Source: a virus (Duplodnaviria; Caudoviricetes). Taken from it: a DNA stretch of 64,000 bases. Shown one piece after another: positions 4,308-22,275 of this stretch (the stretch's first letter is position 1; each line of letters opens with the position of its first letter). The notes under the pieces are model-generated. The model was not told the origin of the DNA, ran no database searches, and worked only from the letters and a program-made list of their open reading frames with translations. The stretch lies in IMG/VR virus record IMGVR_UViG_3300023435_000009. One strand, 5' to 3'. Both the position numbers and the translations under genes were made by a program.

Positions 4308-5375
4308 ATGGCCGTTTCACTTGTGTGGCGCACGGACGCCCATCTGGCGGATCAGCCCCCTCAGTCCCGTATTGATGACTGGGCTGATACTATCCTCAAC
4401 AAGCTCGTCCAGGTGGGAGATATTGCCAGACAGGCCGGTGCCTCTGCAGTGCTGGATGGTGGTGATCTTTTTCATGTTAAGAGTCCGTCCCGGACCAGCC
4501 ACGAGTTGATACAGCGGGTCACGGAGATCCATCGGGTTTACCCCTGTCCGACTCTGGGCATTGTGGGCAACCACGACGTGAAGTACGGAGACATACGGTT
4601 TCTGTCAGAGGCTCCTTTGGGGGTGCTGTTCAAGTCCCAGATCATCCAGCCCTGTTATGACCCGTTGGAGGTGTACTTCGGACAGTCCGATAAGAGTAGC
4701 CCCACGGTGAGAGCTTTTCTCTTCGACCGGGCAGGTACAGGTTGGGTCCAGGGTAGCCCCTTCGTCCCAGGTAGGACCGAACCTGTCGTGCGGGTGGTGG
4801 GCATCCCCTTCCATGGTACCCAGTATGACTTTGCTCGTTTCACTTCGATCATCAAGGGGGAGGAGGATTTCCTGGTCGTGATGGTCCATTGCCTGGCCAG
4901 CCAGCGTGGTGGGACCATGTTCGAGGCTGAGGACATCATTAAGTATGAGGAGCTTGCTTCTCTTGACCCTGATGTTTTCTGTTTCGGCCACTGGCATAAG
5001 GACCAGGGTGTGAAGGAGATTGCCAAGGGAAAGTGGGTCGTCAACACGGGGAGCCTTTCCCGTGGTTCCCTGAGCCAGGACGACCTGGAGCGCACCCCCA
5101 GTTGTGTGGTCCTCGGGTTCGACCAGGACGGGAAGATAACCCACGAGGTGAAGCCTCTGAAGGTGGCTCCTTCCGCTGAGGTGTTCGACCTCGTTGGTCG
5201 TGTCCGGCAGGAAGCCCGCAAGATGACGGTGGATGCCCTAGTTGACAGCCTCCACAGCGCCCTGGCTGTCCGTCAGGTCACTTCTCTCCTGGATGACGTG
5301 AGGGCACTCCCAGACGTGCCAGAGTTGGTGAAGGAACGTACCCTGGCTTACCTGGAGCAAACTGGAGCGAAGTGA
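4308..5375 (+). CDS. sbcD: SbcD/Mre11-like metallophosphoesterase nuclease
   Basis: TDAHL, DGGDLFH, VGNHD, MVH, FGHWH motifs; ATG at 4308 right after the sbcC-N stop. Confidence 0.85.
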   Translation: MAVSLVWRTDAHLADQPPQSRIDDWADTILNKLVQVGDIARQAGASAVLDGGDLFHVKSPSRTSHELIQRVTEIHRVYPCPTLGIVGNHDVKYGDIRFLSEAPLGVLFKSQIIQPCYDPLEVYFGQSDKSSPTVRAFLFDRAGTGWVQGSPFVPGRTEPVVRVVGIPFHGTQYDFARFTSIIKGEEDFLVVMVHCLASQRGGTMFEAEDIIKYEELASLDPDVFCFGHWHKDQGVKEIAKGKWVVNTGSLSRGSLSQDDLERTPSCVVLGFDQDGKITHEVKPLKVAPSAEVFDLVGRVRQEARKMTVDALVDSLHSALAVRQVTSLLDDVRALPDVPELVKERTLAYLEQTGAK

Positions 5376-5881
5376 CCGTCAAGACCTTCACCTTTGGAAA
5401 CGACCCCATCCCGAAGCGACCGACCAAACCGCTGTACATCGAGCTTGTTCCCTTTACAGCGTGGGCGGAGAACGTTCGTACCAAGTGCCCACGCTCCATG
5501 TGGGACCGATTCCGCCGGATGTGTTATCGCCGGGCGGAGTACCGTTGCGAGATCTGTGGTGAGTCAGGGAAGGACCAGGGTAGAGATTGGCCCGTAGAGT
5601 GCCATGAGGTCTGGAGCTACAACGAGGATCTCAGGATCCAGAAGCTCGTGGGCCTCGTTGCCCTGTGTCCTTTGTGTCACGAAGTTAAACATGCAGGACG
5701 GACGGCGAAGCTGGACGGTCCGAAAGGCATTGCCAGAATCTTGACACGCCTTCAGCGGCTCAACGACTGGACCGAGGATCAGGCGGGTGCCCACTTCAAG
5801 GAAGCTTTCCGTGTGTGGAACGTCCAGTCGCAGTGGGACTGGACCCTCGACCTGACTTTCCTAGACTCCGCAGCCCCCTGA
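5372..5881 (+). CDS. HNH-family endonuclease
   Basis: YRCEICG...VECHEVW...LVALCPLCHEVKH zinc/HNH pattern. Confidence 0.7.
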   Translation: MTVKTFTFGNDPIPKRPTKPLYIELVPFTAWAENVRTKCPRSMWDRFRRMCYRRAEYRCEICGESGKDQGRDWPVECHEVWSYNEDLRIQKLVGLVALCPLCHEVKHAGRTAKLDGPKGIARILTRLQRLNDWTEDQAGAHFKEAFRVWNVQSQWDWTLDLTFLDSAAP

Positions 5882-5916
5882 GGATCATCTCACCCGACTC
5901 CCGAGTAGTCTCAGTG
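5882..5916 (+). promoter_or_regulatory. Putative phage promoter GGATCATC-N13-GAGTAG, copy 1
   Basis: Same bipartite motif and spacing occurs at 6144 and 8153; each copy is followed by an RBS and a start codon. Confidence 0.45.
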
Positions 5917-5935
5917 TAAAGCCTACGAGGAGAGC

Positions 5936-6259
5936 GTGATGCCTAAGCCCACCCGTTTCCCGATTAACATCAAATGGTCAGAAATGCTCATGGACGAGCC
6001 GGGTGCAGTGACGGGCCGGTACCTCATCGTGGAGGATGGCAAAGCCATCAAGTGTCTGACGTGCGGGATGACATCTTGGAATCCCAACGACGTCAAGGAA
6101 CGGCACTGTGGCAAATGCCACGTGTTCCACGACGACCCAAAGTGGATCATCCTCCGGTTCGTCCGAGTAGACTGTGTAGGAGGTGCTCTATGGGTGAGAT
6201 CGTCATTCTTATGGGACCGCCGGGCAGTGGGAGATGTCCTTAGATGTGGGGTGCTTTAA
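5936..6259 (+). CDS. Small Zn-ribbon hypothetical protein
   Basis: CLTCGMTSWNPNDVKERHCGKCHVFH (CxxC...CxxC); RBS gaggag. Confidence 0.55.
   Translation: MMPKPTRFPINIKWSEMLMDEPGAVTGRYLIVEDGKAIKCLTCGMTSWNPNDVKERHCGKCHVFHDDPKWIILRFVRVDCVGGALWVRSSFLWDRRAVGDVLRCGVL
6144..6176 (+). promoter_or_regulatory. Putative phage promoter GGATCATC-N13-GAGTAG, copy 2
   Basis: GGATCATC 6144-6151, GAGTAG 6165-6170, then aggagg RBS and ATG at 6190. Confidence 0.45.
6190..6243 (+). pseudogene. Remnant N-terminus of a P-loop kinase
   Basis: MGEIVILMGPPGSG followed by RCP-stop; strong RBS and promoter motif upstream; abuts an inverted endonuclease gene. Confidence 0.35.
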
Positions 6260-6768
6260 TCGGAAAGGTTTTCCAGGTAAGCAACCACACGACGCAAATC
6301 ATCGAGATTGGCGTTGCTTTTAATTGTGTTTGCCTTGTAGGAAATCACCCTCACATTTTCTTTTGTGTATCCTTTACTGGGGACGATTCGGTCCAGCGAA
6401 ATTGAATTGGGGCCACAATGACCGTCATTTATAACGAGCAACAGACCAAGGACAGGGCATCTTTTTGGGATCGTTATGTCGTTGACACACAGATTGAAGG
6501 GGATGTTTTTCTTTCGAGCACGGGTCCGGGCTAGCTGGAGGAGGTATCTTGCAGGATGTTTTCTGTTTTGTTCCCTTTTGTATGCTCGGATTTGTTCAGG
6601 TCTGTTCCTTATGCTTTTTTGTGCTCTTTCAATGGCATGTTTCGGATCAGCCCAATAGGTTTTTTGGGAGTGTTCCTGGCAGCGCCTGCAACTTTTAACA
6701 GGGGAACCCTGAGAGTTGTAAAATTCTACCTTTGGTTTAGTCTGTTTACAGCGGCTACATTGTTGCAT
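6256..6768 (-). CDS. Free-standing HNH/EndoVII-like homing endonuclease
   Basis: N-terminal CSRC...CRRC; CPVLG...SLDRIVPSKGYTKENVRVISYKANTIK; AT-rich and inverted relative to neighbours. Confidence 0.7.
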   Translation of the reverse strand: MQQCSRCKQTKPKVEFYNSQGSPVKSCRRCQEHSQKTYWADPKHAIERAQKSIRNRPEQIRAYKREQNRKHPARYLLQLARTRARKKNIPFNLCVNDITIPKRCPVLGLLLVINDGHCGPNSISLDRIVPSKGYTKENVRVISYKANTIKSNANLDDLRRVVAYLENLSD

Positions 6769-6896
6769 TCAGGGTTCCTCCTGGGGAAAGTCCATCACCC
6801 AAAAAGGTTACACCATAAAGGAACTATTGTCGTTTTGGGTAGCCTGGAGGGTAGTGGGGTCTTGTGGGATTAGTTTCAGACCCCAATCGAGGTGTG

Positions 6897-7226
6897 ATGA
6901 AAAAGCAACTGGCCATCGTTGGTCCTCTGCAACCGGACGGCAGTACGCCGGTCACCCGGATGCGTGAGGGGGATGACGGTGAGACCGAGTACACCACGGG
7001 ACAGATAGTTCCGGCTGAGGACGGCAAAGCGATCCCACTGGGGGCTGAACTCATCTCGCTGAGTCCTTGTGGGGGGACGCCTTTCCACGAGGTGGAGGTG
7101 GTGCATTCCATGAGGGAGTCTGGGACCAAGTGGTCGAAGGGGCCATCCAAGGTTGCGTCCGACGCTTACCGTGATGGCTGGGAGAACATTTTTGGGCGGA
7201 AGCCTCGCCCGGAGGACTTGAACTGA
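6897..7226 (+). CDS. Hypothetical protein
   Basis: RBS gaggtg, GC3-rich codons, coupled to the next gene (TGATG). Confidence 0.6.
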   Translation: MKKQLAIVGPLQPDGSTPVTRMREGDDGETEYTTGQIVPAEDGKAIPLGAELISLSPCGGTPFHEVEVVHSMRESGTKWSKGPSKVASDAYRDGWENIFGRKPRPEDLN

Positions 7227-15817: not shown

Positions 15818-16530
15818 TGTCTGGGTGGTTGGCTACCGCTTTGGAACGGTGTTCCGTCACCCCGGAAGTAGAGGACTATTTTCTTGGCAGGGGTGGCAAA
15901 GAGGAAACCCTCAGGGCGGAGGGGATCACGACCTGGACCGCATCCGACGTGCCTCTCCCTGATCAAAAGTTTCAGTTTCGGTACGGCAGGTACGGCGAAC
16001 GTCTCGACGGGATGTTGATCTGTCCGGTCCATTCCCCAAAGGGTGCTCTGATCGGATTTGAGGGGCGCTCTATCCACCGTAAGTACATCACGGACTACCG
16101 CCTTCCTGAGGAGAAATGGAACCCCTTCTTCCTGGGCACTCGGTCGGCTATGCCAGCGATCTGGGCTGGGGGCGACGTGTGGCTCGTGGAGGGCCTTTTC
16201 GACAAGTGTCCCTTGGAGTGGGCCGTGCCGCCTCAGGATGCTGTGCTGGCTACTGTTAGGGCGTCCCTGTCACGGAAGCACCTGGAGTTCCTGCGGAGAT
16301 TCTGTAAGGGCCGAGTGCATTTAGTGTATGATCGTGACGAAACAGGGCGCAAAGCAACCGTGGGTTGGGTAGATGAGACAGGCAAGCGGCGAATGGGAGC
16401 TTTGGATTTGCTCCGCAGAGCCGGTTTGAACTGTAGCGACGTGTTCTACACAGGGGGCAAAGACCCCGGTGAGATCTGGGATAAGGGCGGCGCTGTCGCT
16501 GTCCGGGCCGCATTCAACAGAAGGAGTTGA
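15817..16530 (+). CDS. dnaG: DnaG-like primase, TOPRIM core without a Zn-binding domain
   Basis: IGFEGRSI, VWLVEGLFD, VHLVYDRDETGRKA (DxD), GKDPGE. Confidence 0.75.
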   Translation: MSGWLATALERCSVTPEVEDYFLGRGGKEETLRAEGITTWTASDVPLPDQKFQFRYGRYGERLDGMLICPVHSPKGALIGFEGRSIHRKYITDYRLPEEKWNPFFLGTRSAMPAIWAGGDVWLVEGLFDKCPLEWAVPPQDAVLATVRASLSRKHLEFLRRFCKGRVHLVYDRDETGRKATVGWVDETGKRRMGALDLLRRAGLNCSDVFYTGGKDPGEIWDKGGAVAVRAAFNRRS

Positions 16531-16531
16531 C

Positions 16532-16990
16532 ATGGCTGAAATGTGGAAAGCAGGGGACGAGGTCATCACCATCGTCAAGGATCTTATTGCCAAGTACCAC
16601 CCACACCTGGCGCTCGTGGATGACGAGATCGCCGTCGTCTTCAAGGAGAAGGCGTCGACCGTGGGGACCGTGGACATCATAGGGAAGACGGGTAAGGCCC
16701 CGGCGATCCTCTCGGTGTTGGGCGACATCAAGTGGAAGTTCCTCCTCATCCTGGCGGCGGACTCCTGGAAAGGACTGTCGGACAAGCAGCGGGTGGCTCT
16801 TCTCGACCACCACCTGTGTGGATGTCGAGTGGAAGAGAATGCCCAGACCGGGGCCACCAAGTGCTTCGTGGCCCCGCCTGATGTGGCCTTCTACAAGGGC
16901 GAGATCGAGCGGCATGGCGTGTGGCGCACCACCGGGACGCCCCCCAGCCCGAACCTCATCCAGGAACTCTTCGGGTCCGACACCCCGTAA
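16532..16990 (+). CDS. Phage metallopeptidase-like protein with a degenerate active site
   Basis: IAVVFKEKA...IGKTGKA...FLLILAADSW..LSDKQRVALLDHHLCGC; HExxH position altered. Confidence 0.5.
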   Translation: MAEMWKAGDEVITIVKDLIAKYHPHLALVDDEIAVVFKEKASTVGTVDIIGKTGKAPAILSVLGDIKWKFLLILAADSWKGLSDKQRVALLDHHLCGCRVEENAQTGATKCFVAPPDVAFYKGEIERHGVWRTTGTPPSPNLIQELFGSDTP

Positions 16991-17043
16991 CCCGCAGGGA
17001 CGCATACAAAGCGTCCCGAAAAGCCAGAGGCTAAGGGGGTCTC

Positions 17044-17745
17044 ATTTCACTTGACACGAAATACCGCCCGCTGGGATATGACGATGTGCTGGGACAGGAG
17101 TCCTCCATCAAGATCCTCCGACGCTTTGTGGCAACAGGGAAGGGCCGTTATCAGTCCTACTTGTTCTGTGGCCCTTACGGCTCAGGGAAGACGACACTCG
17201 GGCGGATCCTGGCACGGGCGCTGCTGTGTGAACAGCCTACTCCCGAGGGAGATCCCTGTGACAAGTGCATCTCCTGTCAATCCATTTTGGAGTCAGGAAC
17301 ATCCTTGGATTTCACCGAGGTGGATGCAGCAACCAACTCAGGGGTGGCGGAGATACACAAGGTCGTAGAGTCCGTCCTTTACGATTCCTTCTCGGGACGG
17401 CGACGGTTGTTCCTCTTTGACGAGTGTTTCACCGAGAGCACATTGTTATTAACCCCTGATGGGTTGAAGTCGATTCGAGAGTTGGTTGAATCGGAGTATT
17501 CTGGCCAAGTGTTAGCCGCTGACTTGGATGAGGGGGATCCTCAATGGGTGTCTGTGGCAAATTGGTTTGTACAGGGTAAGCGCAAAACGGTCACGTTGAC
17601 TTTTGATAATGGTGTTGAGATCACCGTTACCGAGACGCAGAAGATTGCGACCCGGAATAGGGGGTGGGTGACAGCCCAGGATTTGACTTCCGATGACGAT
17701 GTGATAGAATGTCACGAGAGCGTCAAGGGGGTGAAGCATGGGTGA
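17044..17745 (+). CDS. dnaX: DNA polymerase III gamma/tau (clamp loader) N-terminal part fused to a split-intein N-fragment
   Basis: (M)SLDTKYRP..YDDVLGQ, YLFCGPYGSGKTTLGRILARALLC, CDKCISC, EVDAATNSGV, LFLFDE then CFTESTLL; only an ATT start at 17044 is available after the in-frame TAA at 17032. Confidence 0.9.
   Translation: MSLDTKYRPLGYDDVLGQESSIKILRRFVATGKGRYQSYLFCGPYGSGKTTLGRILARALLCEQPTPEGDPCDKCISCQSILESGTSLDFTEVDAATNSGVAEIHKVVESVLYDSFSGRRRLFLFDECFTESTLLLTPDGLKSIRELVESEYSGQVLAADLDEGDPQWVSVANWFVQGKRKTVTLTFDNGVEITVTETQKIATRNRGWVTAQDLTSDDDVIECHESVKGVKHG
17425..17742 (+). mobile_element. Split intein, N-fragment (106 aa)
   Basis: Block A CFTESTLLLTPDG; block B ITVTETQKIATRNRGWVTAQDL (His replaced by Gln); acidic tail, then stop. 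Confidence 0.85.
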
Positions 17746-18922
17746 TGATACCATTTTGTGCGCCTGCGGTTGTGGTACAGTTATCACAAGGCTTGGACTA
17801 AATGGGAAACCCCGGAAGTACAAACAGGGGCATCAGTGTTTAGGACGGAAGATTATCAAAGATGAGCGGTACTGGGGGATCAGACTTCGAAAATTGCACA
17901 CTAGAGCATCCTTATGTTTGTGCGGTTGTGGAGAGAAAGTGTTGGTGTCAATGAGATGGCTCAAAGAACAATCACAACGGGGGGACCGAAAAAAACGTTC
18001 TGTGTGGTTGCCGAAGTATAAAGAGGGGCATATGCCCCTGACTTATTGTGCCTGTGGTTGTGGGACTTTGATCCCTTCCATGGATTCGAGGAATCATAAG
18101 CGTTCTTTTGTTCCAGGTCACGCTGGGTTTTTGAAGAAAGGGATTGATGTCGTAAATTGGAAAAAACGCAAAGATGAGTGGGGTAAGGCTGCTCCTTTTT
18201 GTGCCTGTGGTTGTGGCGTGCAATTGAAACGTACTGAGAAACAGCTTAGGAGTCATATCCCAGATGCTAAGTATCTATCAGGACATGGGACTCGGAGGGG
18301 TTGTGTTCTTAAGTTGACTCAACAAGAAGAGTCCATTGTTTATGGGTGTCTCTTGGGGGACTTTTCGATCACCATTCCGAAAAAGACGGCCAGACTCGGT
18401 TTCACACATTGCATAGCGCAGAAATTGTATGCCTTACATAAAATAGAAATCTTAAAGAGACTGAGTTGGTGGTGGTGTGAGTTTGAAAGCGGGGGGTATA
18501 AGAAGGGAGGGGGCATGATTAGGGGTACCTCTGCATGTATGCCCATCTTGAATTCGGTTTGGGAAACGGTAAGGCCCTTTGGAGAGGGGAAGCAGGTGAC
18601 CTCTCAATGGCTGGACCACATCGATGAGCGTGCCCTAGCCTATTGGTATATGGATGACGGTTCCTGTGGTGTCCGTTTGGTAGATGGGAGCCCCGCTAGT
18701 TTATCGCTGCATACAGAAGGATTCACAGAGTCTGAAAACTTGTTGTTGGCAAGTTGGTTGCGCCACAAAGGGTATAGGGGGGCTAAAGTAGCCCCAACGA
18801 GAGGGTACTTTTATTTGTATCTCCCAAAATTTGCGGCTAGGAAATTTCTGGCCGATGTTTCTCCTTTTGTCCATTCCTCCATGGGATACAAGTTAGGGGC
18901 AGTGGATGGCACGACTAATTAA
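17738..18922 (+). CDS. Free-standing LAGLIDADG homing endonuclease with N-terminal CxCGCG repeats
   Basis: IVYGCLLGDFSI and ALAYWYMDDGS motifs; four CxCGCG...GH repeats; AT-rich; overlaps both dnaX halves. Confidence 0.85.
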   Translation: MGDDTILCACGCGTVITRLGLNGKPRKYKQGHQCLGRKIIKDERYWGIRLRKLHTRASLCLCGCGEKVLVSMRWLKEQSQRGDRKKRSVWLPKYKEGHMPLTYCACGCGTLIPSMDSRNHKRSFVPGHAGFLKKGIDVVNWKKRKDEWGKAAPFCACGCGVQLKRTEKQLRSHIPDAKYLSGHGTRRGCVLKLTQQEESIVYGCLLGDFSITIPKKTARLGFTHCIAQKLYALHKIEILKRLSWWWCEFESGGYKKGGGMIRGTSACMPILNSVWETVRPFGEGKQVTSQWLDHIDERALAYWYMDDGSCGVRLVDGSPASLSLHTEGFTESENLLLASWLRHKGYRGAKVAPTRGYFYLYLPKFAARKFLADVSPFVHSSMGYKLGAVDGTTN

Positions 18923-19028
18923 AAGAGTTGTTGGTGGGGAGCAGATTGTTTTTGATGTGACTACTGAACCTTGTCATAGTTTTTTTGCCTTCAGTGGGGG
19001 GGTGGAAGCTGGGATTTTGGTTCACAAT
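18906..19028 (+). mobile_element. Split intein, C-fragment (41 aa)
   Basis: Basic N-terminus, block F VFDVT, block G HN, +1 Ser at 19029. Confidence 0.85.
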
Positions 19029-20039
19029 AGTCACCAACTTTCTTCACAGGCACTTGATGCTTTGCTCAAACCCCTGGAGGAGAACTTCGAGGACACCCCG
19101 GAGAAGAAACTCGTCTGCATTTTTTGTACGACGGAACCTGAGAAGATGCGGGCCACCATTTTCAGTCGTTGTGCTCCCGCCTTCATCATCCAGCCGGTGA
19201 ATCCTGTCGAGGTTGCTGGGCGGTTGACGATGGTGTGTGACAAGGAGCAGATAGAGTACGAGCCGGAAATGCTGCTGGCTCTGGCCGAGATGACGGAGTG
19301 TCACATCAGGGATGCTTTGAAGGCTGTAGAGGGTATCTCCATGTTGGGGGGTATCACACGGGAGAACGTCATCTCCTATCTCCATCTGGACTTGAATAGT
19401 TCCTACCTGGATGTCCTTGAGGCGTTGGGCACGGACCTGGGGAAGGCTATGGAAACAGCCCATCAGATCCTTCTCCAGACTTCGCCCGCCATCTGCTACA
19501 AGAAGCTGGCCGAGACTGCGATGATGGCCTTTGCGTCCACTCTGGGAAACTCCCACATTCCGGTTTACCTGGATGTGGATCGGGTCCGAGCATTAGGGAA
19601 AAGTCAGGGGAATCAGCTTCTGGGGGTGGCCTCCCGGTTGGCCTCCCGACCGATGCGCCCCACAGAAGCGATGCTTCTCTGTGACCTTGGGGTTTTGCAC
19701 CACGGCGGCGGGGCCATTGGGAATGCTCCGGTGGTATTCATGCCCCAAGGTGCTGTCCCCAAAGAGGGGGTCGTGGTTACCCCTGAGCCAAAAACCTCTG
19801 TCCCCTCTACCCCTTCCAGGGGTACACTGGAAGCAGTTGTGATGCGGAGTGGTGAACCTGTGGTGGGGCGAGGGGCCGTCAATGATGGTACCGTACCTGA
19901 TGCATCCAAGAGGAAAGCATTCGTTACCGAAGGACTTGATGTCACTGAATTCGCTCAGATGTTGGGCCGAGCCCTACAAGACGAACTGAAAAGGGTATCC
20001 GTTGGATCAACGAGACACTCAGACGTGGGTGGCAATTGA
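18906..20039 (+). CDS. dnaX: Split-intein C-fragment fused to the DnaX C-terminal part
   Basis: MARLIKR...VFDVTTEPCHSFF...ILVHN then SHQLSSQALDALLKPLEE, FCTTEPEKMRATIFSRC, CHIRDAL. Confidence 0.9.
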   Translation: MARLIKRVVGGEQIVFDVTTEPCHSFFAFSGGVEAGILVHNSHQLSSQALDALLKPLEENFEDTPEKKLVCIFCTTEPEKMRATIFSRCAPAFIIQPVNPVEVAGRLTMVCDKEQIEYEPEMLLALAEMTECHIRDALKAVEGISMLGGITRENVISYLHLDLNSSYLDVLEALGTDLGKAMETAHQILLQTSPAICYKKLAETAMMAFASTLGNSHIPVYLDVDRVRALGKSQGNQLLGVASRLASRPMRPTEAMLLCDLGVLHHGGGAIGNAPVVFMPQGAVPKEGVVVTPEPKTSVPSTPSRGTLEAVVMRSGEPVVGRGAVNDGTVPDASKRKAFVTEGLDVTEFAQMLGRALQDELKRVSVGSTRHSDVGGN

Positions 20040-20562
20040 ACTTTCTCACCTTGGTGAGGAGAAGGTCCAAGACGGAACTCTTGTAGGCACCCTCCGCCAA
20101 GACCTTGGTGCAGGGGATGACTTCCCTATTTTCATTCCTGCAGCATCCTATCCCAAAGGTCGTAGACGTGTGACCCTTCTCCTGATGGAGGGTTATGTTT
20201 TTGTCGCTTCGGGACTTCCCGACACCAAGTATTTCGAACTGGAGAAACGTCCTTACATTGCACTGGTGATGTCCACGGTAAGTGGGGAGCATCAGATGCG
20301 TGCCGTGACAACGATCCCGAACAGCACAGTGGAGGATCTTCGGCAACAGCTACGGCAAATGGTGTCCTCTGACATCCCTTTGGATGCACGGGTTAGAGTT
20401 ACGGATGGTTCCTACCGAAATCTAGAGGGGATTGTCCGTGGGCTGACTAGGGGATATGCCTTCGTGGAGATTCATTTGCGTTCCTTAGAGGTTGTCGCCA
20501 CAATACCCTGTGTGATGTTGGAGGCTCTCGACCCACTTGCTGAAGAGGATAAAGGTCGGTAG
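20002..20562 (+). CDS. nusG: NusG/RfaH-family transcription elongation factor
   Basis: NGN-like TWVAIEL...LLMEGYVFV...VTTIPNSTVEDL; KOW RVRVTDGSYRNLEGIV...AFVEIHL. Confidence 0.75.
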   Translation: MDQRDTQTWVAIELSHLGEEKVQDGTLVGTLRQDLGAGDDFPIFIPAASYPKGRRRVTLLLMEGYVFVASGLPDTKYFELEKRPYIALVMSTVSGEHQMRAVTTIPNSTVEDLRQQLRQMVSSDIPLDARVRVTDGSYRNLEGIVRGLTRGYAFVEIHLRSLEVVATIPCVMLEALDPLAEEDKGR

Positions 20563-20621
20563 TATTCTTTTTGAGCTTCTCGGACTTTTTGAGCTGCACT
20601 ACAATCTGCGATGAGGTTGTG

Positions 20622-21224
20622 ATGGCTTGGTCCGGGCAATGCATTTTAGATCCCTCAGAGATCGAAGCCAGGTTTGGGGAAGATCTCGGCCTCGCTCATT
20701 TTGATCGCATCACGGAAGACACTACTGAAGAGGATCAGGCCCAGCTTGATCATGTCCGAGCCGTGATGGATCAACTCCCGCCTCGGGAGGCCGACTTTGT
20801 AGACCTCTACTACTTCAAGAAACTGAAGCAGACCGACATCGCTATGATCTTCGGGGTGAGTCAGCCCACCGTCTGTTACCGCCTTGCTCGTGCCGCTGAC
20901 CGTATCCGTTTCCTCCTCAATCTCCCCCAGGTGGAGCGGGAGGAGATGACCAAAGATCTAGCCAGCTATTTTTCGGATACCCTGGATGTGCAGATAATGG
21001 TTTTAATGTGGGAGACCACTTGTCAGAGTGAGGTGGCGAAGATGCTGGGGGTAACCCAGGGCCTCGTCCGGCACAGGTTCATGCGGACGCTGGCCAAAAT
21101 GCGGTCCCACCCTAAGTTCCTCCGGTACGTTGCCCTCTTCGATTACATCTCAGCCAACCTCAACATCCTGCGAGAGGTTCAGCGTCCTCTGTGGAACGAC
21201 AAACTGCTGCGCTGCATCCAATAG
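20622..21224 (+). CDS. Sigma70 region-4-like protein with tandem HTH domains and no region 2
   Basis: LPPREADFVDLYYFKKLKQTDIAMIFGVSQPTVCYRLARA and a second HTH CQSEVAKMLGVTQGLVRHRFMR. Confidence 0.65.
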   Translation: MAWSGQCILDPSEIEARFGEDLGLAHFDRITEDTTEEDQAQLDHVRAVMDQLPPREADFVDLYYFKKLKQTDIAMIFGVSQPTVCYRLARAADRIRFLLNLPQVEREEMTKDLASYFSDTLDVQIMVLMWETTCQSEVAKMLGVTQGLVRHRFMRTLAKMRSHPKFLRYVALFDYISANLNILREVQRPLWNDKLLRCIQ

Positions 21225-21286
21225 AGCGCTCCCGTTTGTCTGCCTATGAGTGATCTGTGTTGGGAGCTTCCTAAGGAGGGATCTCA

Positions 21287-21592
21287 GTGCCTACGGAAGA
21301 GAAACAGATTGTCATGGCAAAGACGCTGGCCCGGCGTTGGTTGGGCAAGGTGGCGTCTGCGGAATACCGTGTCCGAGTCATGTATAGCTCAAGGGAATAC
21401 CGAAATCTTCCGAACCTTCTCAGGGCTTTCAGGGACGGCAAGGTCAGAATCGCAGGGTTGGCACCAGTCAAGGATATGGGCATTCGGGACGAGTTTGACT
21501 TTGTAGAGGTGTGGTCTAGGGACCATGCCGGTCTCCTCCGGCTGGGCCAGTGGTTTGAGAAACAGGGCTTTGATACAACGGGGATCTGGTAA
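21287..21592 (+). CDS. Hypothetical late protein with an LARRWL/KVA motif
   Basis: RBS aaggaggg; MAKTLARRWLGKVASA. Confidence 0.6.
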   Translation: MPTEEKQIVMAKTLARRWLGKVASAEYRVRVMYSSREYRNLPNLLRAFRDGKVRIAGLAPVKDMGIRDEFDFVEVWSRDHAGLLRLGQWFEKQGFDTTGIW

Positions 21593-22275
21593 TGGCAGGA
21601 ATCCAGGAACAAGCCGTTTACACCTTCTCCACCACGGCTGGCGGGGCAACCTACCAGTACGACATCATTGTGGACTCCCAGGGTCTCATCTCCGCTCGGA
21701 ACTTCCGAACTCCGTTGGGGTTGATCGTTGATCCCTACACCACACTGCCCGCAATGGTTCTGGAGGACGTCTACAACGCCCAGGACCAGATCACTCAGCG
21801 GGCGACGACGGCAGAGGTGTCCAGCGGGACGCTGACCTGGGCGGGGGAAACCACCCTGCCCATAGTCATTGCCGGGGGCGTCCTCAACAATACTAACTAC
21901 CGTGTGGTCTACACCACCCCCGATGGGACGCCCTTACAGACCACAGGCAAGACCATCACGGGTTGTACCGCCGAGGCCCCCGCAGCCTACGGGACGGCAC
22001 TCGTACCGATCTCGGTGCCCTACACGGTCCTGGTGGCCACGGCCAGCGTCAGCACCTACGGGGGCACGACGACAATCCTGGCGGCGGATAGCGGCGCTGT
22101 GACGATCACTTTTCCCGTTGCAATGACGACCGAAAACTATCGAGTCGTGCTGACGCCCAACGGCATCTTCCCGGTGTACATCTCGGCCCAGACTAAGGCG
22201 AGCTTCACGATCCAGGTGGGCTACACGATGGTGGTGTTGAGTTCCGTAACCGTTGGTTATGACGTGTTTGTATAG
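21592..22275 (+). CDS. Putative virion structural protein (beta-rich, T/V/A-rich)
   Basis: Two similar beta modules (NNTNYRVVYT / TTENYRVVLT); composition typical of tail or head decoration proteins. Confidence 0.5.
   Translation: MAGIQEQAVYTFSTTAGGATYQYDIIVDSQGLISARNFRTPLGLIVDPYTTLPAMVLEDVYNAQDQITQRATTAEVSSGTLTWAGETTLPIVIAGGVLNNTNYRVVYTTPDGTPLQTTGKTITGCTAEAPAAYGTALVPISVPYTVLVATASVSTYGGTTTILAADSGAVTITFPVAMTTENYRVVLTPNGIFPVYISAQTKASFTIQVGYTMVVLSSVTVGYDVFV

Follow-up and report, generated by a model that had tools for sequence, protein, structure and literature searches.

How could a phage obtain an intact DnaX clamp loader from a dnaX gene that is broken at its Walker B motif, with half of an intein on either side of the break and an endonuclease gene in between? 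The question is raised by positions 17044-20039 of IMG/VR virus record IMGVR_UViG_3300023435_000009 (Caudoviricetes), a stretch of 64,000 nucleotides (nt) that we call the window. Our answer, which we regard as likely, is that the locus is a fractured dnaX of an uncultured large phage, carrying a class-1-type intein in two pieces together with a mobile LAGLIDADG endonuclease. This reading, drawn from sequence comparison and predicted structures, is supported by exact extein junctions, a gapless spliced product, a layout that is conserved in divergent lineages and the predicted complex of the N-terminal and C-terminal intein halves (IntN and IntC).

Three co-oriented open reading frames (ORFs) on the plus strand, each in a different frame, make up the locus. 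ORF1 (17044-17745; frame open from 17035) begins with 127 codons of the dnaX N-extein (17044..17424), which match positions 4-127 of TIGR02397 dnaX_nterm (E-value 4e-34), and continues into an IntN of 106 codons closed by a TGA stop (17425..17745; Cys1 at 17425-17427, block B TETQ at 17629-17640, stop at 17743-17745). ORF3 (18906-20039) opens with 41 IntC codons (18906..19028) that start MARL, include blocks F (VFDVTT..H) and G and end in VHN; the C-extein follows with 336 codons and a stop (19029..20039), has Ser as its +1 residue and matches positions 124-273 of the same model (1.8e-23). Between the halves lies ORF2 (17738..18922), a free-standing homing endonuclease gene of 394 residues in the +1 frame that matches LAGLIDADG_2 (PF03161, 9e-20). 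It overlaps ORF1 by 8 nt (ATGGGTGA) and ORF3 by 17 nt, which suggests translational coupling. GC content is 57-62% in the flanks and falls to 43-50% across 17400-19000, and a search for a group I intron gave no Rfam match at E-values up to 1 on 16900-20200. An initial annotation of the window had placed the break of DnaX between the FDE and SH of Walker B and had described a separate LAGLIDADG ORF overlapping both halves; both proposals were borne out, and all of its coordinates hold.

By direct reading, the N-extein carries Walker A (GPYGSGKTT) and a Walker B that ends in FDE, and the C-extein carries SHQLS, sensor 1, an SRC arginine finger (FSRCAP) and a lid domain; the intein sits directly after the Walker B Asp-Glu. 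Once joined, the exteins comprise 463 residues with all the hallmarks of a clamp-loader ATPase (Walker A, Walker B, SRC finger and lid), with matches to PF13177 and PF22608 in Pfam and, for the first 127 codons of ORF1, to the clamp loader family phrog_5846 in PHROG. At the junction it aligns without a gap to the intein-less DnaX of L001, L003 and L004, in which dnaX is uninterrupted and reads LFDE(S/A)HQLS. The intein-less site as reconstituted in the initial annotation, ctctttgacgag|agtcaccaactt, is correct. Together with L002, these make up four IMG/VR contigs (L001-L004) with a common gene order of primase, a PF18894 metallopeptidase-like protein, dnaX, a NusG-like gene and a sigma-4 protein. 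Among GenBank phages the sole match is weak (68% over 11% of the query), to an unannotated 485-kb uncultured phage. As a separate observation, L002 has an empty Walker B site and contains a different intein, contiguous and endonuclease-bearing (4489-7089), in the dnaX Walker A loop (GSGK|C...HN|T), with LAGLIDADG-like motifs recognised by eye.

Relatives were found by a profile search with the IntN alignment and by searches with IntN and with the endonuclease, and they present the same dnaX site in several states. The three-gene layout of the window recurs in L005, L009/L010, L011-L013, L014 and L019-L023 (the last from IMG/VR), that is, in at least five divergent lineages with 41-59% identity in the intein and 46-53% in the endonuclease. 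Contiguous mini-inteins of 143-151 residues occupy the same DnaX DE| site in six relatives (P0058, P0059, P0066, P0067, P0069 and P0070). L007 has a split intein with no endonuclease, with the stop of IntN and the start of IntC overlapping as ATGA. IntN of L017/P0061 (L017 3001-5761) runs in frame into a LAGLIDADG endonuclease, giving a 531-residue ORF, and in L018/P0064 (L018 2633-4637) it is fused to a decayed endonuclease remnant that consists of one Cys module and the last ~30 residues; in both cases IntC is a separate ORF (starting MAKI/MAKL in L017/L018). In L009 an intergenic gap takes the place of an overlap. Across the family, split inteins have an IntN of 100-109 residues, an IntC of 39-44 residues and Ser or Cys at +1. 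The extein tree mixes split with contiguous alleles in well-supported groups, namely L007+L018+P0070 (100/100), L017+P0059 (97/92) and the window with L005 (95/94). Thus, either the site has switched state at least twice or there has been exchange of alleles. None of the 11 branches of the intein tree had support, and we draw from it no order of events, polarity or donor.

The intein halves retain nearly all residues expected of a splicing element. IntN matches Pfam Intein_splicing at 7e-4, which is below the cut-off, and its best match among solved structures in PDB is the naturally split NrdJ-1 intein (2e-4). As in class 1 inteins, the window has Cys1, blocks F and G, the HN end and a +1 Ser; it departs from them in block B, where the Thr of Thr-x-x-His is kept and the His is replaced by Gln (TETQ). 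Cys at intein position 1 (17425) is invariant in 12 family members. Six aligned split members share C1, F2, T3, the block B Thr and NRGWV in IntN, as well as M1, A2, R3, L4, D17, H40 and N41 in IntC; none of the six lacks the block F Asp, the His-Asn end or a +1 Ser or Cys, and five have the block F His (Gln in L011). The same six conserve a DDD(V/I) segment in IntN. The initial annotation was right about the 106 residues and stop of IntN, and its “acidic tail” proved to be this conserved patch (DLTSDDDVIE), the last eight residues being mildly basic. It was likewise right about the 41 residues, HN end and +1 Ser of IntC, but the “basic” character that it ascribed to this half held only in part, since the net charge is -1 and only the first seven residues are basic.

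Structure prediction is consistent with a single fold built from both halves. The predicted IntN-IntC complex reached an ipSAE interface score of 0.76, compared to 0.01 for the best control, with a partner pLDDT (predicted local distance difference test) of at least 75, at least 222 confident docking contacts and at least 95% of contacts in agreement between runs. The mark used for such predictions is reached by 58 of 80 solved complexes and by 2 of 110 mismatched pairs; as split-intein complexes are among the structures already solved, this pass may reflect likeness to them and is no proof of binding. The AlphaFold 2 model of a contiguous mini-intein (pLDDT 93.4) has a canonical HINT fold. 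Its template modelling (TM) score against the Mtu RecA mini-intein is 0.86-0.92; against NrdJ-1 it is 0.84, and against the Spl DnaX mini-intein 0.78-0.84.

Splicing, DNA cleavage and mobility are what we infer from gene anatomy, conservation, intact catalytic residues and these predicted folds. ORF1 would yield DnaX(1-127)-IntN and ORF3 would yield IntC-DnaX(128-463). IntN and IntC would associate into a single HINT fold and splice in trans, through a Cys1 thioester, attack by the +1 Ser and cyclisation of the terminal Asn, to release a full-length clamp-loader ATPase. ORF2 would act as a monomeric I-SceI-type LAGLIDADG homing endonuclease, its Cys3His modules probably binding DNA, and it could spread the element by cutting those dnaX alleles of co-infecting phages in which the intein or the endonuclease is missing.

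Several points weigh against this scheme. The first is the replacement of the block B His, a residue normally important for the N-S acyl shift. Natural inteins without it form a very small subset (PMC6333167). The second is charge: IntN is acidic (net charge -8 in the window, -7 to -15 across the family), whereas the window IntC is not basic overall, so that charge complementarity is weaker than in relatives, whose IntC carries +2 to +4. The third is the target of the endonuclease, for which dnaX alleles are a candidate. The last is the apparent start codon of dnaX, an ATT at 17044 where relatives have ATG. The first ATG, GTG or TTG in ORF1 is a GTG at 17086, whose use would remove the conserved KYRP motif. 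Because relatives begin MSLDTKYRP at the codon at 17044, and because this codon stands behind a Shine-Dalgarno-like AAGGGGG run (17033-17039), we place the start there, as the initial annotation did; ATT is thus probably the start of dnaX, and it is shared by the near-identical assembly L015.

The block B substitution also bears on an explanation in which splicing has been lost and IntN and IntC merely hold the two DnaX fragments together non-covalently, much like the tails of the fragmented NrdA of phage Aeh1. Such non-covalent rescue of an endonuclease-fractured gene is documented (PMC3045599), the Gln in block B would be in keeping with it, and a tight predicted IntN-IntC interface would serve association equally well. 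We nevertheless consider it unlikely. Every split member, at 41-59% identity, retains Cys1, the +1 nucleophile and the His-Asn pair that ends the intein, none of which would be required for mere association. Furthermore, the Gln is found in five of the six split members (the window and four others) and in all six contiguous mini-inteins. The latter interrupt Walker B and must be excised to give a functional DnaX, which argues that Gln is compatible with splicing. The His is kept in L014, P0057 and P0060, and in related inteins of other exteins (DnaE-like, NrdJ-like and helicases). In L014 and P0057 it represents a reversion by a single-base change, and such a return to His speaks against loss of splicing. 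The Gln is therefore probably a splicing-compatible trait of the dnaX intein clade, judging by its distribution. The initial annotation had noted the substitution correctly as a caveat, and the caveat is softened now that Gln turns out to be the rule in the clade, contiguous inteins included.

Mobility would depend on ORF2. Its C-terminal 200 residues resemble I-SceI, with PDB sequence matches to I-WcaI (1.8e-7) and I-SceI (3.5e-4), and its AlphaFold 2 model (pLDDT 85.8) has TM scores of 0.79-0.81 to these two enzymes. A Foldseek search with the model returned I-WcaI (3.4e-13, TM 0.79) and I-SceI (TM 0.78-0.81), and the fold fits the monomeric double alpha-beta-beta-alpha-beta-beta-alpha pattern. 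The I-SceI-like domain is encoded at ~18332-18847, with its catalytic Asp codons at 18359-18361 and 18653-18658; these belong to the LAGLIDADG motifs LLGD (D208) and MDDG (D306, D307), in which the catalytic Asp are invariant in 17 homologues at ~50% identity. LAGLIDADG_2 is an intron-type family and not the one usual inside inteins, and that ORF2 belongs to it is consistent with a free-standing gene having invaded the locus.

Within its N-terminal 190 residues, ORF2 has four CxCGCG...GH units, each with three Cys and one His (residues 8-190, ~17759-18307). The Cys, Gly and His of modules 3 and 4 are invariant in all 17 sequences, and modules 1 and 2 are conserved wherever that region is present. 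Pfam recognises nothing here beyond a 15-residue match to DUF6527. The same units also precede HNH, HNH_3 and NUMOD3 endonucleases from metagenomes (P0040-P0056). They are probably modular, zinc-dependent DNA-binding units, and they probably represent an undescribed unit of homing endonucleases.

Could ORF2 have been domesticated instead, as a DNA-binding or maturase-like factor of an element that is inherited only vertically? Across the five lineages with an endonuclease, the divergence of intein and endonuclease is similar to that of the exteins, as a long history of vertical inheritance together would predict, and the endonuclease has decayed in L018 and is completely lost in L007. Set against this are the catalytic Asp of both motifs, invariant in 17 homologues at ~50% identity, and the interspersion of split and contiguous alleles on the extein tree, which points to ongoing gain and loss. 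We give domestication a small chance, and slightly less than we give the loss of splicing.

A further reading takes the split itself for an error of assembly or sequencing, or for a pseudogene in decay; the locus would then be a contiguous LAGLIDADG intein interrupted by two erroneous frameshifts. The sizes of the halves (106 and 41 residues) are those of the splicing parts of a canonical endonuclease-bearing intein. The initial annotation had named an assembly error at the stop (17743) or at the frame changes as what would undo its proposal. The separate assembly L015 is 99.87% identical to window positions 15972-18328 (2357 nt), without any indel, and repeats the same stop and frame change. 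Neither would errors produce a three-frame layout in divergent lineages whose IntN stops differ (TGA or TAG) and whose IntC ORFs each have their own ATG (MARL; MAK in L017 and L018) behind a purine-rich stretch, nor an ORF2 of the LAGLIDADG_2/I-SceI family with a 190-residue N-terminal domain that is absent from canonical intein endonuclease domains. A further contig, L016, is 100% identical to window positions 17862-21792 and was not counted as independent support. By all these comparisons the fractured layout is real and not an assembly error, and we regard an artefact as very improbable.

The window and L015 differ at only three positions (17387, 17390 and 17399), changing DSFSGRRR to DYCSGLRR. 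The differences cluster within 13 nt, 26-38 nt upstream of where the intein is inserted, and could be a footprint of recombination or co-conversion, or the result of strain mixing in assembly.

Programmed +1 frameshifting at both overlaps, with IntN, endonuclease and IntC made as one contiguous precursor and spliced in cis, would agree with the +1 direction of both frame changes and with the single-frame IntN-endonuclease fusion of L017/P0061, but is just as improbable as an artefact, as there is no slippery or stimulatory structure (predicted folds at the ORF1/ORF2 and ORF2/ORF3 junctions, including hairpins, are not above shuffles, with z of -1.1 and +0.5), junction sequences differ among relatives, L009 has its intergenic gap, and L007 stays split even without an endonuclease.

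How does a fractured dnaX of this kind compare with known systems? The 26 fractured loci of Dassa et al. (2009) have GIY-YIG or Vsr-like endonucleases, and their hosts include gp41 helicase, IMPDH, DnaE, NrdA, NrdJ, ligase and terminase (PMC2677866). The words DnaX and LAGLIDADG are absent from the text of that study, which did predict that LAGLI-DADG (their spelling) and HNH enzymes would be able to fracture genes (PMC2677866). The authors proposed that inteins are invaded by free-standing endonucleases, which fracture the host gene and at a later stage may become fused in frame, yielding canonical inteins (PMC2677866). The window shares with their loci a replication gene in two adjacent co-oriented ORFs, with IntN ending the first and IntC opening the second, an endonuclease ORF between the halves that overlaps the IntC start, a split at the canonical endonuclease insertion point and an origin in phage or environmental DNA; NrdJ-1, the best IntN match, belongs to their set. 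Endonuclease/IntC overlaps in the published fractured genes are 6-69 bp (PMC2677866), and the 17 nt of the window fall within this range, in support of a fractured gene. Unlike their loci, the window has dnaX as host (outside their eight enzyme types), an I-SceI-type LAGLIDADG endonuclease and a block B Gln, and at its insertion site relatives also show contiguous inteins, splits lacking an endonuclease, fusions and remnants. Thus, the architecture is that of a published fractured gene; its novelty lies in dnaX as host, in an endonuclease of another family that bears extra modules, and in the Gln of block B. The literature was searched for naturally split DnaX inteins and for genes fractured by a LAGLIDADG enzyme, and none was found, so that the claim of the initial annotation, which did not recognise a trans-splicing DnaX intein paired with a LAGLIDADG as described, holds against the searchable literature.

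Inteins in DNA polymerase III gamma (DnaX) have been reported only from cyanobacteria, at one site directly after Walker B (Novikova et al. 2016, PMC4760082). The insertion point of the window is the same as that of the cyanobacterial Ssp and Spl DnaX inteins. Those are contiguous, whereas the window intein is split and phage-borne, with its endonuclease on the same strand; the Synechocystis (Ssp) DnaX intein is reported to have a separately encoded antisense LAGLIDADG ORF, as cited in a 2025 survey of actinobacteriophage inteins (bioRxiv 10.1101/2025.01.02.630785). Sequence similarity of the Spl DnaX mini-intein to the window IntN is weak (E = 0.15), while its fold agrees with that of the relatives (TM 0.78-0.84). 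The 2025 survey reported out-of-frame endonucleases in contiguous inteins (bioRxiv 10.1101/2025.01.02.630785). As these non-canonical inteins are described in the survey and in Gorbalenya (1998) as cited, they resemble the window in that the endonuclease frame differs from that of the splicing domain, and an origin by invasion of an intein by a free-standing endonuclease has been proposed. By the same accounts, their intein frame is open across the endonuclease, whereas that of the window is closed, which makes it a true split. ORF2 itself resembles I-SceI and I-WcaI in its LAGLIDADG_2 domain, its two motifs with catalytic Asp and its fold (TM 0.79-0.81), and differs from these enzymes of organellar group I introns in its place between intein halves and in the additional 190-residue array of four CxCGCG...GH units.

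The endonuclease has at least 449 relatives in IMG/VR, the best 80 of which we classified with IntN, endonuclease and IntC profiles. Three-ORF splits account for 7 of these 80 (5 in dnaX and 2 in superfamily 2, or SF2, helicases), contiguous intein ORFs overprinted by an endonuclease in another frame for 16 and canonical in-frame inteins for 9; in the other 48, one or no intein part was detected by these profiles. The nearest relatives of the endonuclease outside dnaX (31-36% identity, two Cys modules) are found in inteins of SF2 ResIII/DEAD helicases, inserted in motif II at DE|CH. These are overprinted with an open intein frame in L024-L030, L033 and L081, and split in L031 and L083. Helicase and dnaX insertion sites have a common DNA core, GA(C/T)GA(G/A)|TG(C/T)CA(C/T)CG, which makes movement between helicase and dnaX hosts via a shared DExH-like motif plausible.

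Taken further, and put forward tentatively, the phage dnaX Walker B inteins may form a clade that splices without the block B His (via the Gln or a compensating residue) and that has repeatedly been fractured, fused to and freed of an I-SceI-type endonuclease moving between the DExH boxes of SF2 helicases and DnaX DE|(S/C)H. If so, the stages through which an intein acquires and later sheds an endonuclease would coexist in present-day phages, and the clade would also supply new orthogonal split inteins with Ser at +1. The main value of the locus lies in the series of states at a single site; Dassa et al. had no LAGLIDADG example and no such series. One dnaX insertion point is seen empty, with a contiguous mini-intein, split without endonuclease, split with a free-standing endonuclease, with an in-frame fusion, with a decayed endonuclease and with the clade-wide block B Gln, seven states in all, and both the gene-breaking model and catalysis without the block B His thereby become directly testable with few constructs. 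On the practical side, the family supplies several natural split inteins related to the NrdJ-1/gp41-1 group of protein engineering, and a LAGLIDADG scaffold with extra modular units that are putatively DNA-binding.

Two minor observations concern the endonuclease gene. A promoter-like TTGACT-16-TAGAAT with an upstream TG lies at 17683-17710, in the end of the IntN coding sequence and 28 nt before the endonuclease ATG; the count of such TTGACT/TAGAAT-type sites in the region equals chance expectation. Related LAGLIDADG_2 domains, several of them in frame in inteins, are present in GVMAG giant-virus contigs (L046, L056, L058, L063, L075, L079, L080, L095 and L098), and the ORF2 endonuclease family thus spans phage and giant-virus inteins.

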